Assembly (NCBI GenBank): GCA_050950505.1
Contig: JBMNHS010000001.1
Coordinates: forward strand, 1,024,001 to 1,088,000
Direction of reading: 5' to 3'
From: Candidatus Methanomethylophilaceae archaeon
GTDB taxonomy: Archaea; Thermoplasmatota; Thermoplasmata; Methanomassiliicoccales; Methanomethylophilaceae
DNA length: 64,000 nt
Positions 9,197 to 51,090 of the stretch are shown here, one piece after another. Position numbers and translations under genes: made by a program. Position 1 is the stretch's first letter. Each line of letters opens with the position of its first letter. The notes beneath the pieces were generated by a model. It saw only the letters and a list, made by a program, of their open reading frames with translations. It ran no database searches and had not been told where the DNA came from.

Positions 9197-10363
9197 ATGA
9201 AAGAGGTTGATTTCAAAGCTCAGCAGAATTCTGAAGAAGTTCAGCAAGAAGAAACCGTATCTGTCGAGAACGAAGTTATTGTGGAAACCGTTGAAACCAA
9301 GGTTGAAGAAACCGCGGAAGAAACCGTTGAAAATATCGTTGAGGACGCAGTAGAAAAACCCGCGGAAGAAACCGCGGAAGAAACCGTCGTAACCGAAGTT
9401 GAAGAAACTGAGGAAGCGGATGAGGGTACGGAAGATTCAGCAGATGCCGGAGAAACGGAATTTGATGAAAAAGAGTCTGAAAAGAGACTCGAGGCCCTTG
9501 AAGAGAAACGCAGCATTGCGGATCTCGATGCGGATAAGCACAGAAAACAGAGGGACGAATACCATGACCTTGCCAGAGAATGGAAGGCTAAGAGGGATTC
9601 GTTGAACGCGCAGGTGAGGGACTTAGTGGCCCATGCCACCGAGAGCAGGGAAAAACGTGACGAGTACAACAATCTCGTCAGGGAATCCAAAGCCCTCCGT
9701 GACGAATGGAACGAGAAAGTATCCGATTTCAAGGTTAAGATGGCTGAACTCAGACCGGAAAGAGCCGACAAAGAGAAACCCAGACAATCGCTCGAAGACA
9801 TGAGAAGACACCTGAGAAGGTTGGAAATTCAGCAACAGACCGCTACGTTGACCAAAGACGCAGAGGAAGCCATCGTCAGACAGATATCCGAAATGGCAAA
9901 GGCAATTGATGAACGTGCATCCGAAGAGGAATCAAGCCTTGAACAGAACACCGAATTCAAGAAGATCCACACAGAGTTCAAGGAAGCAAAGGCAAAAGCC
10001 GAAACTCACCATGCTGAGATGACGGAGTACGCAGACAAAGCGCAGTCCGAACATGAAAACATGATTTCGTTCTACGACCAAGCCGACAGAATCCGCAAAG
10101 AAGCGGACGCGGCTCAGAGCAAACATGTCGAGTACAGGAATCTCGGTGACAAAGAACACAAGAAACACATCGAAATCGTTGGAGCTCTTCAGGAAACGGA
10201 TAAAGAAGCGGCATCTCTCAGAAACCGCAAAACCAGTGTCCGCAGAAGGAAAGCCGAAGCCGAGAACAAGAAAGAAGCCAAGGAAATCTTCGAACGCTTC
10301 AAGAACGGCGAAAAGCTCAGCACCGACGATCTTATGGCGCTTCAGCGTTCCGGATACCTTTAA
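9197..10363 (+). CDS. Archaeal coiled-coil protein (COG1340-like) with acidic N-terminal extension
   Basis: Long heptad-rich region with RDELN-type repeats; C-terminal AKEIFERFKNGEKLSTDDLMALQ. Confidence 0.8.
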   Translation: MKEVDFKAQQNSEEVQQEETVSVENEVIVETVETKVEETAEETVENIVEDAVEKPAEETAEETVVTEVEETEEADEGTEDSADAGETEFDEKESEKRLEALEEKRSIADLDADKHRKQRDEYHDLAREWKAKRDSLNAQVRDLVAHATESREKRDEYNNLVRESKALRDEWNEKVSDFKVKMAELRPERADKEKPRQSLEDMRRHLRRLEIQQQTATLTKDAEEAIVRQISEMAKAIDERASEEESSLEQNTEFKKIHTEFKEAKAKAETHHAEMTEYADKAQSEHENMISFYDQADRIRKEADAAQSKHVEYRNLGDKEHKKHIEIVGALQETDKEAASLRNRKTSVRRRKAEAENKKEAKEIFERFKNGEKLSTDDLMALQRSGYL

Positions 10364-10371
10364 ACATTTTC

Positions 10372-10390
10372 GCCTGCGGTTTCCGCAGGC
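10372..10390 (+). terminator. Hairpin after the coiled-coil gene
   Basis: GCCTGCGG-TTT-CCGCAGGC. Confidence 0.6.
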
Positions 10391-10451
10391 AAAATATAAT
10401 TTTTTACCATTTTTCAGAACATTTATATAGATACCATCTGATGAAGTATCA

Positions 10452-10520
10452 CGGGGATTAGGTCAGTTTTGTAGAGTGCATCCCATCCCTTCTGACCGGC
10501 TGGCCTCTTCCCGCACTTTT
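10452..10520 (+). ncRNA. Candidate hairpin small RNA with a 29-nt CU-rich loop
   Basis: TTTATATA at 10422-10429; stems CGGGGA/TTCCCG and AGGTCAGTT/GGCTGGCCT with four G-U pairs on +; ends in TTTT. Confidence 0.55.
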
Positions 10521-10595
10521 ATCCTTCACAATCGTGATCGGTTTTTGTAAAAACTAAAATCTATAATATACGTAGCCTATCTAGGTGTTGTTTCT

Positions 10596-11945
10596 ATGGT
10601 AATGGAAGGTTTGGGAAGCTCGTTGAGGAATGTCCTCAAGAAAATTACCGGCGCCTCGTCGGTGGATGAAGAACTTATCAGAGAAGTGTCCAAGGATCTT
10701 CAGCGCGCATTGTTGCAGGCGGACGTAAACGTACAACTGGTGCTTCAGTTGACTTCCGATGTCCAGGAGAGGGCCCTCAACGAAAAACCTCCCGCGGGCA
10801 AAAGCGCCAAAGATCACGTTATAGGCATAATATACGAAGAAATGGTGGCCCTTCTCGACAACGGCGAAGGACTCAAACACAAACCTCAGACCATAATGAT
10901 GGTCGGTCTCTACGGCCAGGGCAAAACCACCACCACCGGCAAACTCGCCAACTATTTCATCAAAAAAGGATTCACCGTCGGACTCATAGGTGCCGACGTT
11001 TACCGCCCGGCGGCTTTGGACCAGTTGAAACAATTGGGTGAAAAAGTCAACGCCGACGTTTACGGCGAACCCGGCGAAAAGAACGCGGCCAAAATCGTGG
11101 AAAACGGAATGAAAGCCTTCAAGGACAAAAAAATCGTCATTGTGGACACATCCGGACGTCATGCCCTTGAAGACGATCTCATCACCGAACTCAAAGATAT
11201 CGCAAAAGTATCCAAACCCGACGAAAGAATCCTTGTTCTCGATTCACAGGTCGGGCAGCAGGCCGGACCGCAGGCCGAAGCCTTCCACAACGCCGTAGGC
11301 GTTACCGGCGTCATACTGACGAAAATGGACGGCACCGCAAAGGGAGGAGGCGCATTGTCCGCAGTCTCCAAAACCAACGCCAGAATCGTATTCCTGGGTA
11401 CCGGGGAGCACATAAGGGACTTGGAGCCCTTTGACGCCAACCGTTTCATATCAAGACTGCTGGGGATGGGCGATCTGTCCTATCTCGCACAGATTGTTCA
11501 GGATGAAATAGGCCATGACAAAGCCATAGAGCAGGCCAGCAGAAATATGCTGTCGGGCAAGTTCACGCTGGTGGACATGTATCAACAGATGGTCGCCGTT
11601 ACCAAGATGGGGCCCCTCAGCAAAGTAATGTCCATGTTGCCCGGAATGAGCAACATGCAGGACAAAATCGATTATGAGGAATCCCAGAAGAGACTTGCGC
11701 AGTTCAGAGTGATTATGGATTCCATGACTCTGGAAGAAAAAGAAAATCCCTCAATCATCAAAGGAAGCAGAATCGAAAGGACCGCCGCCGGCGCGGGCGT
11801 CGAGCCGAAAGACGTAAGACTGCTTCTCAAACAGTATAACCAAAGCAAGAAGATGATGGGCACATTTTCCAAAGACCGCAAGATGCGCAAACAGCTTATG
11901 AAGCAACTCGGCGGCATGGACCTCGATATGGATGCGGAGCAGTGA
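10596..11945 (+). CDS. srp54: Signal recognition particle protein SRP54
   Basis: GLYGQGKTTT, DTSGRH, TKMDGTAKGGGALS, Met-rich M domain. Confidence 0.97.
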   Translation: MVMEGLGSSLRNVLKKITGASSVDEELIREVSKDLQRALLQADVNVQLVLQLTSDVQERALNEKPPAGKSAKDHVIGIIYEEMVALLDNGEGLKHKPQTIMMVGLYGQGKTTTTGKLANYFIKKGFTVGLIGADVYRPAALDQLKQLGEKVNADVYGEPGEKNAAKIVENGMKAFKDKKIVIVDTSGRHALEDDLITELKDIAKVSKPDERILVLDSQVGQQAGPQAEAFHNAVGVTGVILTKMDGTAKGGGALSAVSKTNARIVFLGTGEHIRDLEPFDANRFISRLLGMGDLSYLAQIVQDEIGHDKAIEQASRNMLSGKFTLVDMYQQMVAVTKMGPLSKVMSMLPGMSNMQDKIDYEESQKRLAQFRVIMDSMTLEEKENPSIIKGSRIERTAAGAGVEPKDVRLLLKQYNQSKKMMGTFSKDRKMRKQLMKQLGGMDLDMDAEQ

Positions 11946-45021: not shown

Positions 45022-46839
45022 ATGACAGACATCTTGGCTAAAGACGGAAAACACCTGCTTCTGGGGAACGAAGCCATCACCAGAGGTTTGTTCGAAGCAG
45101 GGGTAAGATACTCGTCCACATACCCCGGGACTCCTTCTTCGGAAGTCGGAAACATACTTGAGACGGAAGCCGAAAAAGGAGGAATGTATTTTGAATTCTC
45201 AACAAACGAAAAAACCGCATTGGAAGTCGCCGCCGCGGCGGCGGCTTCAGGTTTGAGATCTTTCACTTTCATGAAACATGTGGGTCTCAACGTTGCCGCC
45301 GATCCCATGATGACTCTGGCCTATTCCGGCGTTGAGGGCGGTATGCTCATAATGACCGCCGACGACCCGTCCTGTCACAGTTCACAGAACGAACAGGACA
45401 ACCGTATGTATGCCATGTTGTCTCTTTTACCAATGGTGGAGCCTTCGACCCCCGCCGAAGCCAAAGACATGATCGCCGAGGCTTACAAAATATCTGAAGC
45501 CGTCAATCTCCCTGTCATATACCGTACCACCACCCGCGTAAATCACGCAAGGGGGCCGGTGGAATTCGGACCGATGGCCGACACACCCGTGAAAGGGCAT
45601 TTCGTCAAAGACGACCCCAAATACGTCAATATCCCCGCGTTCTCAAAACCTAACCGCACAAGGCTGTTGGAGAAGCAGAAGAAAGCCATGGAACTTTCCG
45701 AGAATTCGCCTTTGAATTTCACGGAAGGCGAGGGTGAAGTGGGAATCATCACATCGGGAGTTTCATACACCTATGTCAAAGAGTTTGTCGGTGACGCAGC
45801 CATACTCAAACTGGGATTCACCGCGCCTTTGCCGGAAAAGAAAATCGCAGACTTCGTCAGAGGAAAAAAAGCCGTCATAATCGTCGAAGAACTGGAACCC
45901 TACCTTGAGGACAACGTTCTCAGAATTTCAGCCCAGGAATCTCTCAGCGTTCCCATATACGGAAAACGCAGCGGACATTTCCCACGGGAGTGGGAATATT
46001 CGCCGGACACGCTTACCGCGGTTTCCGACATCGTCAAAGTTCAAAAATTCGAAAAACCTCTTTCAAAACCCGACATCCTTCTGCCCGGAAGACCTCCGAC
46101 GCTGTGTGCCGGATGTCCCCACCGCGGCACCTTCGCGGCCGTGACAAGGGAAATGAAAGGCAAAGAGGCAGTTTACTGTTCGGACATAGGTTGTTACACC
46201 CTTGGAATTCAGGCACCCTTCCATGCGGCGGATTTCATAATCTGCATGGGCGGAGGGGCGGGAGCGGCGGGAGGGTTCGCCGAAGCCACGGACCAGATTC
46301 CGATTGCGTTCATCGGGGATTCGACATTCTTCCACTCCGGCGTTCAGCCTTTGGTTTCCGCTTTGTTCAACAATCATAAAATCAAAATGATCATAATGGA
46401 CAACCGCAGCACTGCGATGACCGGACATCAGCCCAATCCCGGTACGGGGAGGAATTTCGGCGGAATCACCACCGAACCTCTGGATATAGAATCTCTTGTA
46501 AAGGGAATCGGCGTGAAACATGTCAGTACCGTCGACCCTTACGATGTCAAGGCCATGCGCAAAGCCGTGCGCGAAGCCATCGATTTCGACGGTGTCGCGG
46601 TCGTTGTCGCAAAACAGGCATGTCCCCTCGAACTGAAGAAGCAGAAAATACTCAAAGTAAAGAGATGCGAAGTCGATCATGAAAAATGCATCAGATGTTA
46701 CACATGTCTGAAGACCATAGCGTGTCCTGCACTGATCAAAGACAAGGACGGATCCATTCTGGTTGACGATGTTCAATGCATAGGCTGCGGCATGTGTGCC
46801 AATGTTTGTCCAAAAGACGCATTGGAGGTGAAGGAATGA
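45022..46839 (+). CDS. iorA: Indolepyruvate:ferredoxin oxidoreductase alpha subunit
   Basis: LGNEAI, YPGTPSSE, MKHVGLNVA, RPPTLCAGCPH, GDSTFFHSG, C-terminal ferredoxin. Confidence 0.96.
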   Translation: MTDILAKDGKHLLLGNEAITRGLFEAGVRYSSTYPGTPSSEVGNILETEAEKGGMYFEFSTNEKTALEVAAAAAASGLRSFTFMKHVGLNVAADPMMTLAYSGVEGGMLIMTADDPSCHSSQNEQDNRMYAMLSLLPMVEPSTPAEAKDMIAEAYKISEAVNLPVIYRTTTRVNHARGPVEFGPMADTPVKGHFVKDDPKYVNIPAFSKPNRTRLLEKQKKAMELSENSPLNFTEGEGEVGIITSGVSYTYVKEFVGDAAILKLGFTAPLPEKKIADFVRGKKAVIIVEELEPYLEDNVLRISAQESLSVPIYGKRSGHFPREWEYSPDTLTAVSDIVKVQKFEKPLSKPDILLPGRPPTLCAGCPHRGTFAAVTREMKGKEAVYCSDIGCYTLGIQAPFHAADFIICMGGGAGAAGGFAEATDQIPIAFIGDSTFFHSGVQPLVSALFNNHKIKMIIMDNRSTAMTGHQPNPGTGRNFGGITTEPLDIESLVKGIGVKHVSTVDPYDVKAMRKAVREAIDFDGVAVVVAKQACPLELKKQKILKVKRCEVDHEKCIRCYTCLKTIACPALIKDKDGSILVDDVQCIGCGMCANVCPKDALEVKE

Positions 46840-47435
46840 AGTATACCGTTCAGATAGTCGGTGTCGGGGGACAGGGAGTTCTCCTGGCTTCCATGGTCAT
46901 CGGAAACGCCGCCATGAAAGCCGGACACGATGTGGCCATGAGTGAAGTTCACGGCATGGCCCAGAGGGGGGGAAGCGTATTGTCCACGGTGAGATTCGGC
47001 GACGGCATAACCAGTCCTTTGGAAGCCGTCGGAGGTGCCAATCTCTTAATCGGATTCGAACCTGCCGAAACTGCCAGAAACCTTTCCCTTTGCAATAAAG
47101 ACACAGCGGTTCTCATGAATCTGGATCCGATTCTTCCCTCATCGGTCGCGGCAGGATTCGATACATATCCCGAAGTGGACGACATTGTGAAAGCCGTGAA
47201 AGCTTCGGTTCCCAGATTGATGACCATAGGCGCTACGGATCTTGCAACCGAAGCCGGACGCGCCGTCGTCGCAAATGCGGTGATGATAGGTGCCGTTGCC
47301 GCCGCCGAAGGATTCCCGCTCGACAAGGACTTGCTGTTGGAAACCCTGTTGGAAACTGTTCCTGAAAAATTCGTGGACCTGAACCGGAAAGCTTTCGAGC
47401 TGGGATATGAGTATTACGTATCCAACAGAGTCTGA
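46836..47435 (+). CDS. iorB: Indolepyruvate:ferredoxin oxidoreductase beta subunit
   Basis: GVGGQG, SEVHGMAQRGGSV, NRKAF. Confidence 0.95.
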   Translation: MKYTVQIVGVGGQGVLLASMVIGNAAMKAGHDVAMSEVHGMAQRGGSVLSTVRFGDGITSPLEAVGGANLLIGFEPAETARNLSLCNKDTAVLMNLDPILPSSVAAGFDTYPEVDDIVKAVKASVPRLMTIGATDLATEAGRAVVANAVMIGAVAAAEGFPLDKDLLLETLLETVPEKFVDLNRKAFELGYEYYVSNRV

Positions 47436-47448
47436 ACAAAAACCATTG

Positions 47449-47479
47449 GGCCCGGGAAACCGGGCCATGTTTTATTTTT
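47449..47479 (+). terminator. Hairpin plus T-tract after iorB
   Basis: GGCCCGG-GAAA-CCGGGCC then TGTTTTATTTTT. Confidence 0.7.
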
Positions 47480-47501
47480 CGAACCGTATCGAATAAAAAT
47501 T

Positions 47502-47546
47502 AAAAGTTGCAATGATACCGGCGGCACTTCGCACCGGCATCACTGC
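47502..47546 (-). terminator. Long hairpin ending the RHH gene 3' region
   Basis: Minus strand GCAGTGATGCCGG...CCGGTATCATTGC (G-U pairs valid on minus) then AACTTTT. Confidence 0.6.
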
Positions 47547-47630
47547 GCGTGCATCCCATAAACAAGAGGTTTGGAGGCGCGGGCCGGTATACGAGTCCCA
47601 TCCTTTGACCGGCCCGCACATATCGGTTCT

Positions 47631-47996
47631 TCATTTCAATTTCGAAGCCATCTGTGCCAAATCGAAAGCATTCTCGACGGTCTTTTTCATACCGGATTCG
47701 GGAATGATTTTTTCCAACACAGTGTTTCTCACGAATTCCTCCTCCGTAAGGCAAATCCCTTCATCCTTAAGAGTGGAAAGCATGATCATCTGCAACTCCG
47801 AAAAGCGGACGAAGATTCCGCTTTCATCCTCACGTGCGTCTTTGGCACCGGGTGCATCTCCGGAAACGAACGCTCGGATTGCGGCACGGATGAGATTGGA
47901 TCGATTTCCGATATCCGGGTTCTCTTCTACGAAGTCTTCCATAATCTGGACTTCTTCGGGTCCCATCCTGAGAGTTACCTTGATATCATCCGTCAT
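47631..47996 (-). CDS. Ribbon-helix-helix (CopG/CdrS-like) DNA-binding protein
   Basis: KVTLRM beta-strand, ..NRSNLIRAAIR helix; second RHH-like unit IFVRF...EEFVR; SD GGTGA. Confidence 0.8.
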   Translation of the reverse strand: MTDDIKVTLRMGPEEVQIMEDFVEENPDIGNRSNLIRAAIRAFVSGDAPGAKDAREDESGIFVRFSELQMIMLSTLKDEGICLTEEEFVRNTVLEKIIPESGMKKTVENAFDLAQMASKLK

Positions 47997-48054
47997 TCAC
48001 TCACCGTGCCACAGAGCTTGTAGAGTCCCATCCCTTCAGGCTCTGGATATACCA

Positions 48055-48104
48055 TGTAAGACGGAGTATTTAAAAGTGTCGGGCATTGTCCTACTTTGTC
48101 CGAC
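48055..48104 (-). promoter_or_regulatory. TATA box of the RHH gene flanked by GTMNKAC-like repeats
   Basis: Minus TTTAAATA at 48074-48067; GTAAGAC at 48056-48062; TGTC at 48077, 48087, 48097. Confidence 0.55.
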
Positions 48105-48219
48105 GGATTTGTATAAGAAATATCATACGGCTGCGCTTTTCATACGTACGCACATGATAGAGGTATAGAATAGTATATAATCGGTGTGGACTTCTTCACG
48201 AAATCATCGGGTAATGTAA

Positions 48220-51090
48220 ATGGAACTTGACCACACTAGCATAGAAGAGAAGTGGCAGGAAGAATGGTCGGAGACGGGAATCAGCATAGCTTCCCGTGAC
48301 GACAGGCCCAAATTTATGATAATTTTCGCCTATCCCGGAGTTACGGGATATCTTCATGTCGGACACCTTCGCGGTTATACGTATACCGACGCAATCGCTC
48401 GATACAAGAGAATGTTGGGATACAACGTCATGTTCCCCGTGGGCACTCATGCCACGGGAAACGGTGCAATCAGTCTCGCGAATCGCATCAAGAGGGAAGA
48501 TCCGGACATAATCGAATACATGAAAAGTAACGGTTGCACCGATGAAATTCTCAAAACTCTGACCGAACCCATGGCCGTCGTGAATTATTTCAATGATATT
48601 TACGTCAATGATTATTGGAAGAGATTCGGATTCCTGGCCGATTGGAGGAGATTCACCTGCACACTCAATCCCGATTACGGCAAGTTCATCGAGTGGCAGT
48701 TCAGAAAACTCATGGATGCCGGTCTTCTGATTCAGAAACCTTATTTCGCTCCCTTCTGTCCGAACTGCGGCCCGGTGGCAATCGATGCTTCCGAAACCGA
48801 TATTTCCAAGGGAGGCAGCGCCGAAGTTCAAGAATACGTTTTGATGAAATTCGAATTCGGAGAGATGAAACTGATTGCCGCCACCCTCAGACCCGAAACG
48901 GTGTACGGTCAGGTCTGTTTCTGGGTCAATCCCGATACCGATTATGTGAAAATAGAATACGGTGAAGAAGTCTGGATTGTTTCAAAACCTGCCGCCGACA
49001 AGCTGAGAATGCAGTATGACGGCATCGAAGATTTCGGAACCGTCAGAGGAAGGGATCTTGTGGGTTGGACCTGCAAAGCCCCCATGGTGGGAAGAATCAT
49101 CCCCATATTGCCCGCAACATTTGTGGATCCGGAAGTGGGAACCGGTATGGTAACCTCGGTACCCTCGGATTCTCCTGACGATTACATCAATCTGAAATAC
49201 ATCAAAGATCACCCCGAAGAATACAAAAAATACGGAATCGAAGAAGAGTTGATAGCTTCGATAGAACCGATTTCCATAATAGATATCGAAGGATACAGCG
49301 AATTCTCTGCCAAAGACGTGATTGAGGAAATGGGAATCACAGGTCCCGACGATCCAAAACTGGAAGAAGCCAAGAAGAAAATCTACAGAGACGGTTTCCA
49401 CTCCGGTGTGATGAACGCATCCAGCGGATCTTATGCAGGAATGCGGGTCGAAGAAGCCAAAGAAAAGATGAGGGACGCCATGTTGGAATCCGGTGAAGCG
49501 GTGCTTCTCCACGATCTGTCCGAAGAGGTCGTCTGCAGATGCGGCGAGAACGTCCGCGTGAAAAGAATCGACGATCAATGGTTCATAGATTACAGCGGCG
49601 AGGAACTCACGAAGAAAACCTCCGATCACTGCAGGGAAATGAGCATTTATCCCCCGGAATACCAAACCAACATTCACGGAACCCTCGACTGGTTCCGGGA
49701 ACGTGCCTGCGTCAGACAGGGCAACTGGTTGGGGACAAGGTTTCCCTTCGATGATAAATGGATCATCGAAGCCATATCGGATTCCACTCTGTATCCGATA
49801 TATTACGTAATATCTCTTTACGCCAACACCGGCAACATAAAACCGGAAGGAATGAACGAATCTTTCTTCGATTACGTCATACTCGGAAAAGGCGATGAAA
49901 ACGAAGTCGCCGAGGAATCGGGCATCACTCCCGCAGTTCTCAACAACATCCGCGAGGATGTGAAATACTGGTATCCGCTGGATGTGAATCTGGGCGGAAA
50001 AGAGCACATGACCGTGCACTTCCCAGCTTTCCTGTTCAATCATATGGCGATACTTCCCGAGAAGATGCAGCCGAAGGGAATCGTTGTCAATTGGTACATC
50101 ACCGGCAAACAGTCGAAGATATCCAAGTCAAAGGGAGGCGCCCAACCCATACCCGGAGCCGTGAAAACCTACGGGGTGGATGCCATGCGTCTGTATTATT
50201 CCCATGTGGCTTCCATGTTCATAGACGTGGAATGGAACGAGGAGATTCTGTTTTCGTACAAACAGAGGGTGGACAGAATCTTTGCTTTCGCCAATGATCT
50301 CATAGAAACCTCCGGCCCCAAGAAAGGCATCGATAAATGGCTGCGCTCCAGATTCCAGACCCATGTGTCCAATATACGGGACATCATGAAACGTTATGAT
50401 CTCAGACAGATGGCCACTTCCGTTTATTACGAAATGTACAATGACCTTAGGTGGTATCTCAGACGGGGCGGTGCCGACAACGAAACTCTGATGGACGTGT
50501 TGAAGATATGGGTTCAGAGCATGATGCCCATAACCCCCCACATGGCCGAAGAGCTTTGGAGTCTGGCGGGCTTCGAAGGAATGGTGTCCGAATCCCTTTA
50601 TCCCGAGCCAAGGGAAAGATACCCCATGGCGGAATACGGCGAGGATCTCATACGTTCCACGATATCCGACGTGTCTCAAATCAGAAAGGTCGCCGAAATC
50701 GAACCGTCAAAAATCTGCATATACACATCGCCTTCCTGGAAGAAGGATGTATACCGCATCGCCGCGGATATTCTTGATTCCGGCGAAGAACTGACGATTC
50801 CCATACTTACCAAGGAAGTCATGTCCGATCCGGAAATCAGGGCCAACGGCAAAGCCGCTTCCGAACTTTCGAAGAAAGTCGCCGTGGAACTTATCCGGGA
50901 GGATCCGTCAAGGATACGCAGGTATGCGGATACGGACGAATTCGGAATCATCAAAGAAGCCGCGGAATTCCTCGGGGAAGAATTGGGTTCCGCCGTATTG
51001 GTGTATGATGCCGACGACAAGGGAAAATACGACCCCAAGAACAGATCTTCCGTGGCGGTTCCCGGAAGGCCCGCGATATATCTTGAATGA
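48220..51090 (+). CDS. leuS: Leucyl-tRNA synthetase (archaeal type)
   Basis: GYLHVGH, ATLRPET, GTGMVTSVPSDSPDD, KISKSKG, PGRPAIYLE. Confidence 0.96.
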   Translation: MELDHTSIEEKWQEEWSETGISIASRDDRPKFMIIFAYPGVTGYLHVGHLRGYTYTDAIARYKRMLGYNVMFPVGTHATGNGAISLANRIKREDPDIIEYMKSNGCTDEILKTLTEPMAVVNYFNDIYVNDYWKRFGFLADWRRFTCTLNPDYGKFIEWQFRKLMDAGLLIQKPYFAPFCPNCGPVAIDASETDISKGGSAEVQEYVLMKFEFGEMKLIAATLRPETVYGQVCFWVNPDTDYVKIEYGEEVWIVSKPAADKLRMQYDGIEDFGTVRGRDLVGWTCKAPMVGRIIPILPATFVDPEVGTGMVTSVPSDSPDDYINLKYIKDHPEEYKKYGIEEELIASIEPISIIDIEGYSEFSAKDVIEEMGITGPDDPKLEEAKKKIYRDGFHSGVMNASSGSYAGMRVEEAKEKMRDAMLESGEAVLLHDLSEEVVCRCGENVRVKRIDDQWFIDYSGEELTKKTSDHCREMSIYPPEYQTNIHGTLDWFRERACVRQGNWLGTRFPFDDKWIIEAISDSTLYPIYYVISLYANTGNIKPEGMNESFFDYVILGKGDENEVAEESGITPAVLNNIREDVKYWYPLDVNLGGKEHMTVHFPAFLFNHMAILPEKMQPKGIVVNWYITGKQSKISKSKGGAQPIPGAVKTYGVDAMRLYYSHVASMFIDVEWNEEILFSYKQRVDRIFAFANDLIETSGPKKGIDKWLRSRFQTHVSNIRDIMKRYDLRQMATSVYYEMYNDLRWYLRRGGADNETLMDVLKIWVQSMMPITPHMAEELWSLAGFEGMVSESLYPEPRERYPMAEYGEDLIRSTISDVSQIRKVAEIEPSKICIYTSPSWKKDVYRIAADILDSGEELTIPILTKEVMSDPEIRANGKAASELSKKVAVELIREDPSRIRRYADTDEFGIIKEAAEFLGEELGSAVLVYDADDKGKYDPKNRSSVAVPGRPAIYLE

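Follow-up and report, generated by a model that had tools for sequence, protein, structure and literature searches.

The window analysed here is a stretch of 64,000 nucleotides from the genome of a Candidatus Methanomethylophilaceae archaeon (C1:1024001-1088000 of genome G000). On its minus strand, at 47631-47996 including the stop codon, the list of open reading frames (ORFs) and profile searches place a gene for a 121-aa double ribbon-helix-helix (RHH) protein resembling CdrS, a regulator of archaeal cell division, and this cdrS-like gene is bracketed by two hairpins that display the same loop motif. On the plus strand of the same window lies a predicted small RNA (sRNA) gene, the loop of which is complementary to that motif.

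A cdrS-like gene flanked by hairpins with a common loop motif

The 11-mer GGATGGGACTC occurs exactly at 48033-48023 and at 47603-47593 (minus strand), in both cases within a hairpin loop, and these are the only 2 sites in the whole genome of 1,326,829 bases; the reversed sequence, taken as a control, has none. The 5' leader hairpin, CAGAGCCTG-AAGGGATGGGACTCTA-CAAGCTCTG, spans 48012-48045 on the minus strand and carries the motif in the loop GAAGGGAUGGGACUCUACAA. The 3' trailer hairpin, GCGGGCCGGT-CAAAGGATGGGACTCGTAT-ACCGGCCCGC, spans 47579-47617 on the same strand and has a perfect 10-bp stem; it folds with -26.4 kcal/mol (z -3.4), which none of 200 shuffled sequences equalled. The leader fold is not significant by itself (-14.3 kcal/mol, z -1.6, 11 of 200 shuffles as good), and the number of motif matches within the 64-kb window is unremarkable, with 4 at one mismatch or fewer against 1.5 expected and 5 of 100 shuffles reaching 4. 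The significance of the motif thus rests on its genome-wide count and on the comparison with relatives.

Two further copies lie on the same transcript strand. Within the coding sequence (CDS), an in-frame copy with one mismatch, GGATGGGACCC (GGAUGGGACCC, codons R-M-G-P), is found at 47958-47968, and its AGGATGGGA is preserved by the majority of the family's orthologues. Nearly all orthologues of the family encode the Arg of the conserved L-R-M-G stretch with AGG, which accounts for only 17% of the Arg codons of the genome, a bias that hints at a nucleotide-level constraint on the in-frame copy. Downstream of the trailer hairpin, ATGGGATGCAC (AUGGGAUGCAC) at 47549-47559 (-) offers 11 nt complementary to the sRNA loop; it is the relic of an element that stands 3-5 nt before the start of the ftsZ-like gene in relatives. 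A terminator-like hairpin follows at 47546-47509 (-26.4 kcal/mol, z -3.0), with T-runs to 47490. The original prediction had announced the two hairpins with their common loop, a Shine-Dalgarno (SD) sequence, and a third motif followed by a terminator stem, and all of these are present on the minus strand, the motif at 47559-47549 and the SD, GGTGA, at 48005-48001, ending 4 nt before the ATG at 47996. The 3' end of the 16S rRNA reads GGAUCACCUCCU.

Upstream, a TATA box (TTTTAAATA, 48067-48075, minus strand), found at the equal position in orthologous cdrS-like loci, implies a transcription start near 48044. Around it stand four GNNNGACA-type repeats (GTCGGACA, GTAGGACA, GCCCGACA and GTCTTACA; 48055-48104, minus strand), three of them at exact 10-bp spacing 5' of the TATA box (48104-48077) and the fourth between the TATA box and the start (48062-48055). 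Similar repeats, e.g., tatgacaaaatatgaca and gtctgacaaaagtcggaca, recur in the cdrS promoters of related genomes as well as in those of other genes that bear the motif, and the GNNNGACA repeats are probably the DNA operator of the regulon.

The protein itself is a diverged, duplicated double-RHH homologue of CdrS, from a family and a gene arrangement that are both known. The NCBIfam CdrS model (NF058555, a Halobacteria equivalog of 61 positions) matches residues 6-56 with an E-value of 5.5e-5 and 23.1 bits against a cut-off of 100, and this is the better of 2 matches in the genome. The N-terminal resemblance to CdrS suggested by the original prediction therefore holds, below the cut-off of the model, and the second RHH-like unit that it had noticed proved to be the second half of the same protein, which matches RHH profiles. 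The window protein has no Pfam match at E <= 0.01; among 39 aligned orthologues, RHH_8 is matched by 26 and RHH_1 by 13. When the orthologue alignment was compared as a profile with chains of the PDB, residues 58-111 aligned with a ParD-type RHH antidote (E 6e-5) and the first half with NikR (E 0.012). An AlphaFold model (pLDDT 83, pTM 0.38) comprises two helix-turn-helix-like pairs and a C-terminal helix, the low pTM making the arrangement of the two domains unreliable. A Foldseek search of the PDB returned no match at E <= 0.001 for the window protein, and its weak top matches are RHH proteins. The gene is present in 59 of 61 related genomes and in all 48 of high quality.

In 28 of the 30 related loci first fetched, the cdrS-like gene is followed within 7-272 nt by an ORF of 206-264 aa, a tested example of which contains the Tubulin/FtsZ GTPase domain (PF00091, E 9e-31; TIGR00065, 161 bits, below cut-off). 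This recurring neighbour supports orthology to CdrS by ancestry. The FtsZ-like partners of the relatives are truncated, consisting of the GTPase domain only (230-260 aa). The genome under study, which is 99.6% complete, has neither a PF00091 match nor a tblastn match to the FtsZ-like protein of its relatives, and the next gene beyond the cdrS-like gene is a convergent iorB-like ORF. The lack of an adjacent ftsZ, which the original prediction had pointed out, is thus a peculiarity of this genome: 13 of the 16 genomes of the genus carry one or two truncated genes of the tubulin/FtsZ family, and this is the sole high-quality one without any. SepF is present (C1:767227-767445); no match to Snf7 was found in the genome in a search whose control was itself weak. 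Three relatives (G002, G012 and G021; loci L158, L159 and L160) have a second tubulin-family gene with an RHH-like gene immediately before it, the stop of one lying close to the start of the other and the motif being absent; in these relatives there are thus two pairs of RHH and tubulin genes.

Outside the window, a second module at G000:C1:71480-71600(+) resembles the cdrS trailer: GGAUGGAUAAUGGGAUGC occupies the loop of a 10-bp hairpin, and GGGGAUGCAC comes after it. The module sits 3' of a Sel1-like gene with no ORF behind it, and may be another sRNA target or a relic. It was also considered as the mark of a lost second tubulin gene, a reading that finds no support, since in relatives that gene follows another RHH gene without motif.

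Contigs assembled from the RNA libraries of two studies were placed on the cdrS region. Two metatranscriptome runs gave contigs over 47696-48039 and 47590-47989, which together span both loop motifs, at a depth of 21-29 over the cdrS-like gene against 12 over the iorB-like gene and 5-7 over leuS. The flanking spacers are without contig cover, and run X4 gave none at all, the uncovered parts being uninformative. At 48039, which falls five bases within the predicted 5' end, and at 47590, which is in the trailer loop and three bases past the motif, the contigs give way to adapter sequence; contigs cannot show true ends, and the two positions might be genuine RNA ends or a site of processing. Since DNA carry-over is possible and true ends are not seen, the contigs are weak evidence, compatible with a transcript that starts near 48044 and holds both loop motifs.

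Conservation of the motif in related genomes

The leader loop GAAGGGATGGGACTCTAC(AA) is kept at three or fewer substitutions in 22 of 30 orthologous loci, and most of the others appear by eye to be indel variants. The stems that present it differ from locus to locus (AGAGC/GCTCT, GGCGA/TCGCT, TTGCAAG/CTTGCAA, CAAGTG/CACTTG and others), and across 20 distinct orthologous leaders the flanks of the loop pair better than shuffled flanks do, with a mean z of -3.0 and 15 of the 20 below -2. For the trailer hairpin, the same flank-pairing test is passed by all 12 distinct sequences of the genus and by 14 of 27 overall; in distant members of the family, the motif stands beside a nested trailer hairpin recognized by eye, and the simple pairing test fails. 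The earlier proposal that unrelated stems with a common loop betray selection on a single-stranded RNA motif is borne out, the loop being kept across orthologues as its stems change, and the motif is not missing from the orthologous loci, a finding that would have spoken against it.

Beyond the family, the motif changes place. In other families of the order the leader is without it, and cAGAAGGGATGGGATGCAC, with hardly any variation, lies in the spacer between cdrS and ftsZ. In the order of the window's organism, the motif also stands 4-5 nt before the start of a conserved ORF of 67-85 aa in 5 of 5 loci; this ORF belongs to no Pfam family, has the consensus ...W(M/V)(K/R/Q)(T/N/K)HT(I/L)xDL... 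and was not found in the genome of the window. At the loci of this ORF designated L063, L066, L068, L070, L072 and L147, the motif lies 1-5 nt before the start and GACA repeats are seen in the promoter. Five genomes of two other families hold the motif, at one mismatch or fewer, 7-14 times each, against 0-1 for the control. Among 30 sites fetched from these genomes, 6 are sRNA genes or paralogues thereof, and 11 of the remaining 24 end 1-4 nt before a start codon. The genes with the motif at their start codon in one of the families, f10, encode the cdrS-like RHH protein, full-length FtsZ, a DUF835 protein, a Na/H exchanger and two small proteins; in the genes for an RDD-SAP protein and for another tubulin-family protein, the motif lies 17 and 58 nt upstream of the start, respectively. 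The occurrence of the loop motif near other genes, which the original prediction had recommended looking for, is therefore a reality in relatives, before cdrS, ftsZ and other starts.

On a broader scale, 149 of 151 genomes of the order contain the pattern AAGGGATGGGAYNC, with 0-1 matches per genome for the reversed control, and the 12-mer GGGATGGGATGC has 325 matches in 151 genomes of the class, compared to about 12 for its reversed control, far above one sRNA gene per genome. Copies outside the sRNA genes always lie in the sense strand of transcribed regions. Two other readings of these elements were discarded by eye: small ORFs starting at the ATGs of the motif itself do not conserve frame or length among relatives, and the GA pairs, boxes and ACA needed for K-turn, C/D-box and H/ACA structures are absent from the hairpins.

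A predicted small RNA gene with a complementary loop

The short sequence GGATGGGA is not enriched genome-wide (53 sites against 38.5 expected). One of its sites, at window position 10488, belongs to a hairpin loop, AAGGGATGGGATGCACTCTACAAAA, that equals the leader loop plus four extra bases, on the strand opposite to the neighbouring genes for a DUF7121 protein and ffh. Read on the plus strand, this locus, 37 kb from the cdrS-like gene, is a predicted, unannotated sRNA gene of ~70 nt at 10451-10520, with a hairpin at 10454-10512 and a T-run, TTTT, at 10517-10520. Its 13-nt apical loop, UGCAUCCCAUCCC (10477-10489, plus strand), lies in a loop region that is the reverse complement of the motif, and a TATA box, TTTATATA (10422-10429, plus strand), stands ~25 nt before the hairpin. 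The gene is located between ffh and the gene for the DUF7121 coiled-coil protein (9197-10363, plus strand; PF23435, E 4e-32). Throughout the class, the sRNA gene keeps the DUF7121 gene as its upstream neighbour, including at loci that have no ffh downstream.

Every sampled genome has at least one copy of AAGGGATGGGAYNC at the syntenic place beside ffh, and the sRNA loci of other orders share the arrangement of DUF7121 gene, TATA box, hairpin and T-run, often with ffh. Of 35 sRNA loci, 29 have a TATA-like box beginning 54-58 nt ahead of GCATCCC, and in 19 a run of at least four T residues follows the core by 25-27 nt. By promoter and T-run, the locus has the makings of an independent transcription unit. 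A simple consensus scan for bacterial-type sites found nothing at the sRNA locus, and Rfam gave nothing meaningful at E <= 10 for either 10200-10700 or the cdrS region (46800-48800), with matches far below the gathering scores.

A covariance model, R1, was built from 12 sequences, and 33 loci were aligned to it for the analysis of covariation, since register shifts in a plain MAFFT alignment had cost RNAalifold the outer helices. In the R1 alignment, 93.2% of cells pair and 9 of 18 pairs have changed on both sides, whereas none of 500 shuffles scored as high and pairing drops to 35-56% in controls with slid partners. About 113 of the 574 paired cells are G-U pairs, which would be A-C mismatches on the opposite strand, indicating that the sRNA is transcribed from the strand of ffh. 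Without a single change, 32 of 32 sRNA sequences share the 20-mer GAGTGCATCCCATCCCTTCT (GAGUGCAUCCCAUCCCUUCU), which is the motif's reverse complement. R1 scores 93 bits at the window locus, its sole match in the genome, and matches 99 of 151 genomes sampled across the class; no match was obtained in families f16 (0 of 15), f24 (0 of 12) and f19 (0 of 3). Taken on its sequence record, the sRNA gene is real, with a conserved covarying structure and predicted expression.

Complementarity between the sRNA and its candidate targets

Against the sRNA loop, the cdrS leader can form 12 bp (GAAGGGAUGGGA) and 9 bp (CUCUACAAG), with four sRNA bases bulged, and the trailer loop and the CDS copy each agree exactly with the perfect sRNA target over 8 nt or more. 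In all, the 28-nt perfect target is matched in sense, over 8 nt or more, at 6 places in the transcript stretch 47545-48045(-); across 26,520 sampled genome windows of 501 nt, none has more than 4 such matches and the mean is 0.13. The cdrS-like transcript is therefore an outlier in this genome for sRNA-target matches.

In family f10, a second sRNA copy carries the loop ...AUCCCAUCCCG... (CCCAUCCCG; reads ...CCCG...). This paralogous sRNA (loci L124, L125 and L126) lies downstream of a different gene, and an A-run and GGGGGGAGG precede it. The mRNA sites of the f10 genomes have the form C/UGGGAUGGGAUGC, i.e., CGGG or UGGG, and none has AGGG, which is carried by the motif sites found via synteny in the window's order. 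In genome G292, the ftsZ site makes 19 contiguous Watson-Crick pairs with the genome's own sRNA paralogue versus 13 with the primary copy, and the cdrS sites make 15 versus 14. In three sister genomes, only GGGAUGC(AC) is conserved of the site at the ftsZ orthologue, placed 1-3 nt ahead of the ATG, indicating that the minimal shared target is short. Complementarity to mRNA sites at or near translation starts is thus, at the level of sequence, a conserved property of the sRNA.

Discussion

Collectively, these results point to a trans-acting antisense sRNA whose C-rich loop would pair, across a cell-division regulon, with mRNA leaders and ribosome-binding regions, the motif-bearing hairpins of the cdrS-like gene being its target sites; we regard this as the probable explanation, if by no means a certain one. 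The cdrS-like mRNA would present GGGAUGGGA-type sites to the sRNA in the leader loop, in the trailer loop, in the CDS and further downstream, and the apical region of the sRNA, 5'-UUGUAGAGUGCAUCCCAUCCCUUCUGAC-3', would recognize them as their reverse complement. The first contact may be made loop to loop, between UCCCAU of the sRNA and AUGGGA of the target, and on the leader the pairing could extend to ~21 bp. The sRNA would thereby control translation or mRNA stability of a small cell-division regulon. We infer both the pairing of the two RNAs in the cell and the direction of its effect. A motif abutting the start codon naturally suggests repression by occlusion of the start region. In relatives, the motif overlaps the ribosome-binding region of cdrS, of ftsZ paralogues and of a few other genes, so that the ancestral action was most likely control of translation initiation or of mRNA stability, and the ancestral effect was probably repression through occlusion of the ribosome-binding site. 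With the ftsZ-like genes gone from the genome of the window, the cdrS-like mRNA would be the main remaining target. In the window gene the SD is separate from the motif, and an effect on mRNA stability or on the opening of the 5' hairpin is equally possible.

Several observations weigh against this interpretation. For the gene under study, the leader motif lies ~15 nt upstream of the SD, and simple occlusion of the ribosome-binding site is not obvious. The leader duplex, at -33.9 kcal/mol (RNAduplex), ranks only about 16th genome-wide and the best sites for 20 shuffled loops average -38.1 kcal/mol; shuffled loops doing as well, hybridization energy alone has no power to single out the leader. 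Nor are sites with at least 9 nt of contiguous complementarity enriched in the genome (178 against ~202 expected). As to the sRNA gene, the covariation alignment was itself fitted to model R1, the comparison of fold energies between strands is weakly one-sided (21 of 35 loci, Wilcoxon p 0.04), a clear T-run is present in about 19 of 35 loci, and at loci with ffh downstream, the hairpin may belong to a long leader of that gene instead. The RNA contigs reveal neither strand, ends nor small RNAs, the sRNA being a prediction, and the relatives are not independent of each other, so counts across genomes overstate the support.

Alternatively, the motif could be a double-stranded DNA operator, for instance one by which the RHH protein regulates its own gene, with the locus beside ffh merely another binding site. 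RHH regulators do recognize short repeated sites, the cdrS-like gene bears a cluster of up to six full or partial copies, both orientations relative to local transcription are represented if the ffh-side locus is counted, and the promoter repeats common to motif-bearing genes suggest a common regulon. However, the copies lie within transcribed regions rather than at promoters, always in the mRNA sense strand and often 1-4 nt before start codons; in the window's family they occupy hairpin loops with covarying stems, a feature of RNA; and the ffh-side locus, with its promoter, its G-U-rich covarying helix and its T-run, is that of an RNA gene. Moreover, the GNNNGACA repeat, spaced at 10 bp around the TATA box, is the better operator candidate. 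Given the sense-strand transcribed sites, the covarying loops and so obvious an operator in GNNNGACA, we consider the DNA reading unlikely.

Explanations at the RNA level that dispense with pairing between the two RNAs fare no better. Several GGA-rich copies in loops and beside start codons are what one would expect of an element bound by a protein, CsrA-like or other, the complementary sRNA being unrelated or indirectly involved, and an RNA-binding protein was indeed the partner that the original prediction had in mind. Such an element would leave unexplained a conserved RNA with the exact reverse complement over 14-28 nt throughout the class, as well as the joint change of the paralogous sRNA copy and the targets of its lineage, and no candidate protein has been identified. 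The evidence points instead to the conserved small RNA with its exactly complementary loop, and we hold the protein-binding element to be improbable. Smaller still is the chance that the motif is an unusual ribosome-binding signal and the sRNA a structural or housekeeping RNA with an anti-SD-like loop, which strikes us as very unlikely. It is true that GGAUGGGAU resembles the SD GGAGGUGAU at 7 of 9 positions, that the motif replaces the SD 1-5 nt before start codons in relatives, and that the sRNA loop AUCCCAUCC resembles AUCACCUCC of the 16S 3' end. Nevertheless, the window gene has a canonical GGTGA, the motif appears upstream of it as well as in the trailer and the CDS, it is confined to a small set of genes, and the complementarity of the sRNA is perfect over up to 19-28 nt, far past the resemblance to an SD. 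A plain SD was rejected outright, the motif not being complementary to the 3' end of the 16S rRNA.

To our knowledge, the timing of archaeal cell division is largely unknown, and CdrS is among the very few regulators that we know of, studied so far only as a transcriptional one. Liao et al., in 2021, reportedly dealt with CdrS and the cdrS-ftsZ2 locus of Halobacteria. The window's protein resembles the halobacterial one in that 28 of 30 related loci have an FtsZ-family gene immediately behind the RHH gene and in the match of its N-terminal half to the CdrS model. It differs in that its score falls far below the NF058555 cut-off, and the partner in relatives is a GTPase domain only and is missing altogether from this genome. 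The cdrS-ftsZ2 synteny is, according to Darnell et al. (2020, PMC7439475), widespread among archaea, and CdrS is described there as a small single-domain RHH protein, compared to 121 aa and two RHH units here; the words 'UTR' and 'motif' are absent from the main text of that paper. The CdrS-like protein of the window may be regarded as a putative regulator of cell division.

Base-pairing sRNAs are a well-known kind of system, and the closest parallels come from several directions. The DicF sRNA of Escherichia coli is said to pair with the ribosome-binding region of ftsZ, and thus shares with our candidate the idea of a trans-acting small RNA that controls division via the translation initiation region of ftsZ. 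DicF, however, is bacterial, prophage-encoded and Hfq-dependent and has no sequence or structure in common with the archaeal sRNA. The latter is encoded on the chromosome, is conserved across a class of archaea and would act on the regulator gene cdrS as well. In Methanosarcina mazei, sRNA162 reportedly targets the mRNA for a transcription factor, as is said to have been demonstrated experimentally in that one species. It is likewise an archaeal trans-acting sRNA with a transcription-factor mRNA as target, but its sequence is unrelated, whereas the sRNA described here is predicted and combines a 20-nt loop invariant across the class with several loop-displayed sites per mRNA. The C-rich-loop sRNAs RoxS/RsaE of Firmicutes have a UCCC-type seed, and the similarity lies in a C-rich unpaired hairpin-loop motif (here UCCCAUCCC) pairing with G-rich ribosome-binding regions; there is no homology, the domain of life is another, and the archaeal seed is much longer and invariant. 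Full-text searches of the literature turned up no account of such an sRNA or of its match to cdrS and ftsZ, and it corresponds to no Rfam family; to that extent, the sRNA is previously undescribed.

A wider version of the proposal we see as an even call: a ~70-nt sRNA with an invariant C-rich loop, conserved across much of the class, would then act as a riboregulator of cell division, pairing with GGGAUGGGAUGC sites that are presented in loops or adjoin start codons on the mRNAs of cdrS, of FtsZ paralogues and of a few other genes and adding a post-transcriptional layer to the CdrS-FtsZ network, and the link between sRNA and cdrS would have survived even in a lineage without any FtsZ-family gene. 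An organism with SepF but no FtsZ offers a handle on what CdrS does there, and the sRNA brings a clear seed and a testable set of targets. If the interpretation is true, this would be a post-transcriptional regulator of archaeal cell division and would rank among the most widely conserved regulatory sRNAs of archaea.

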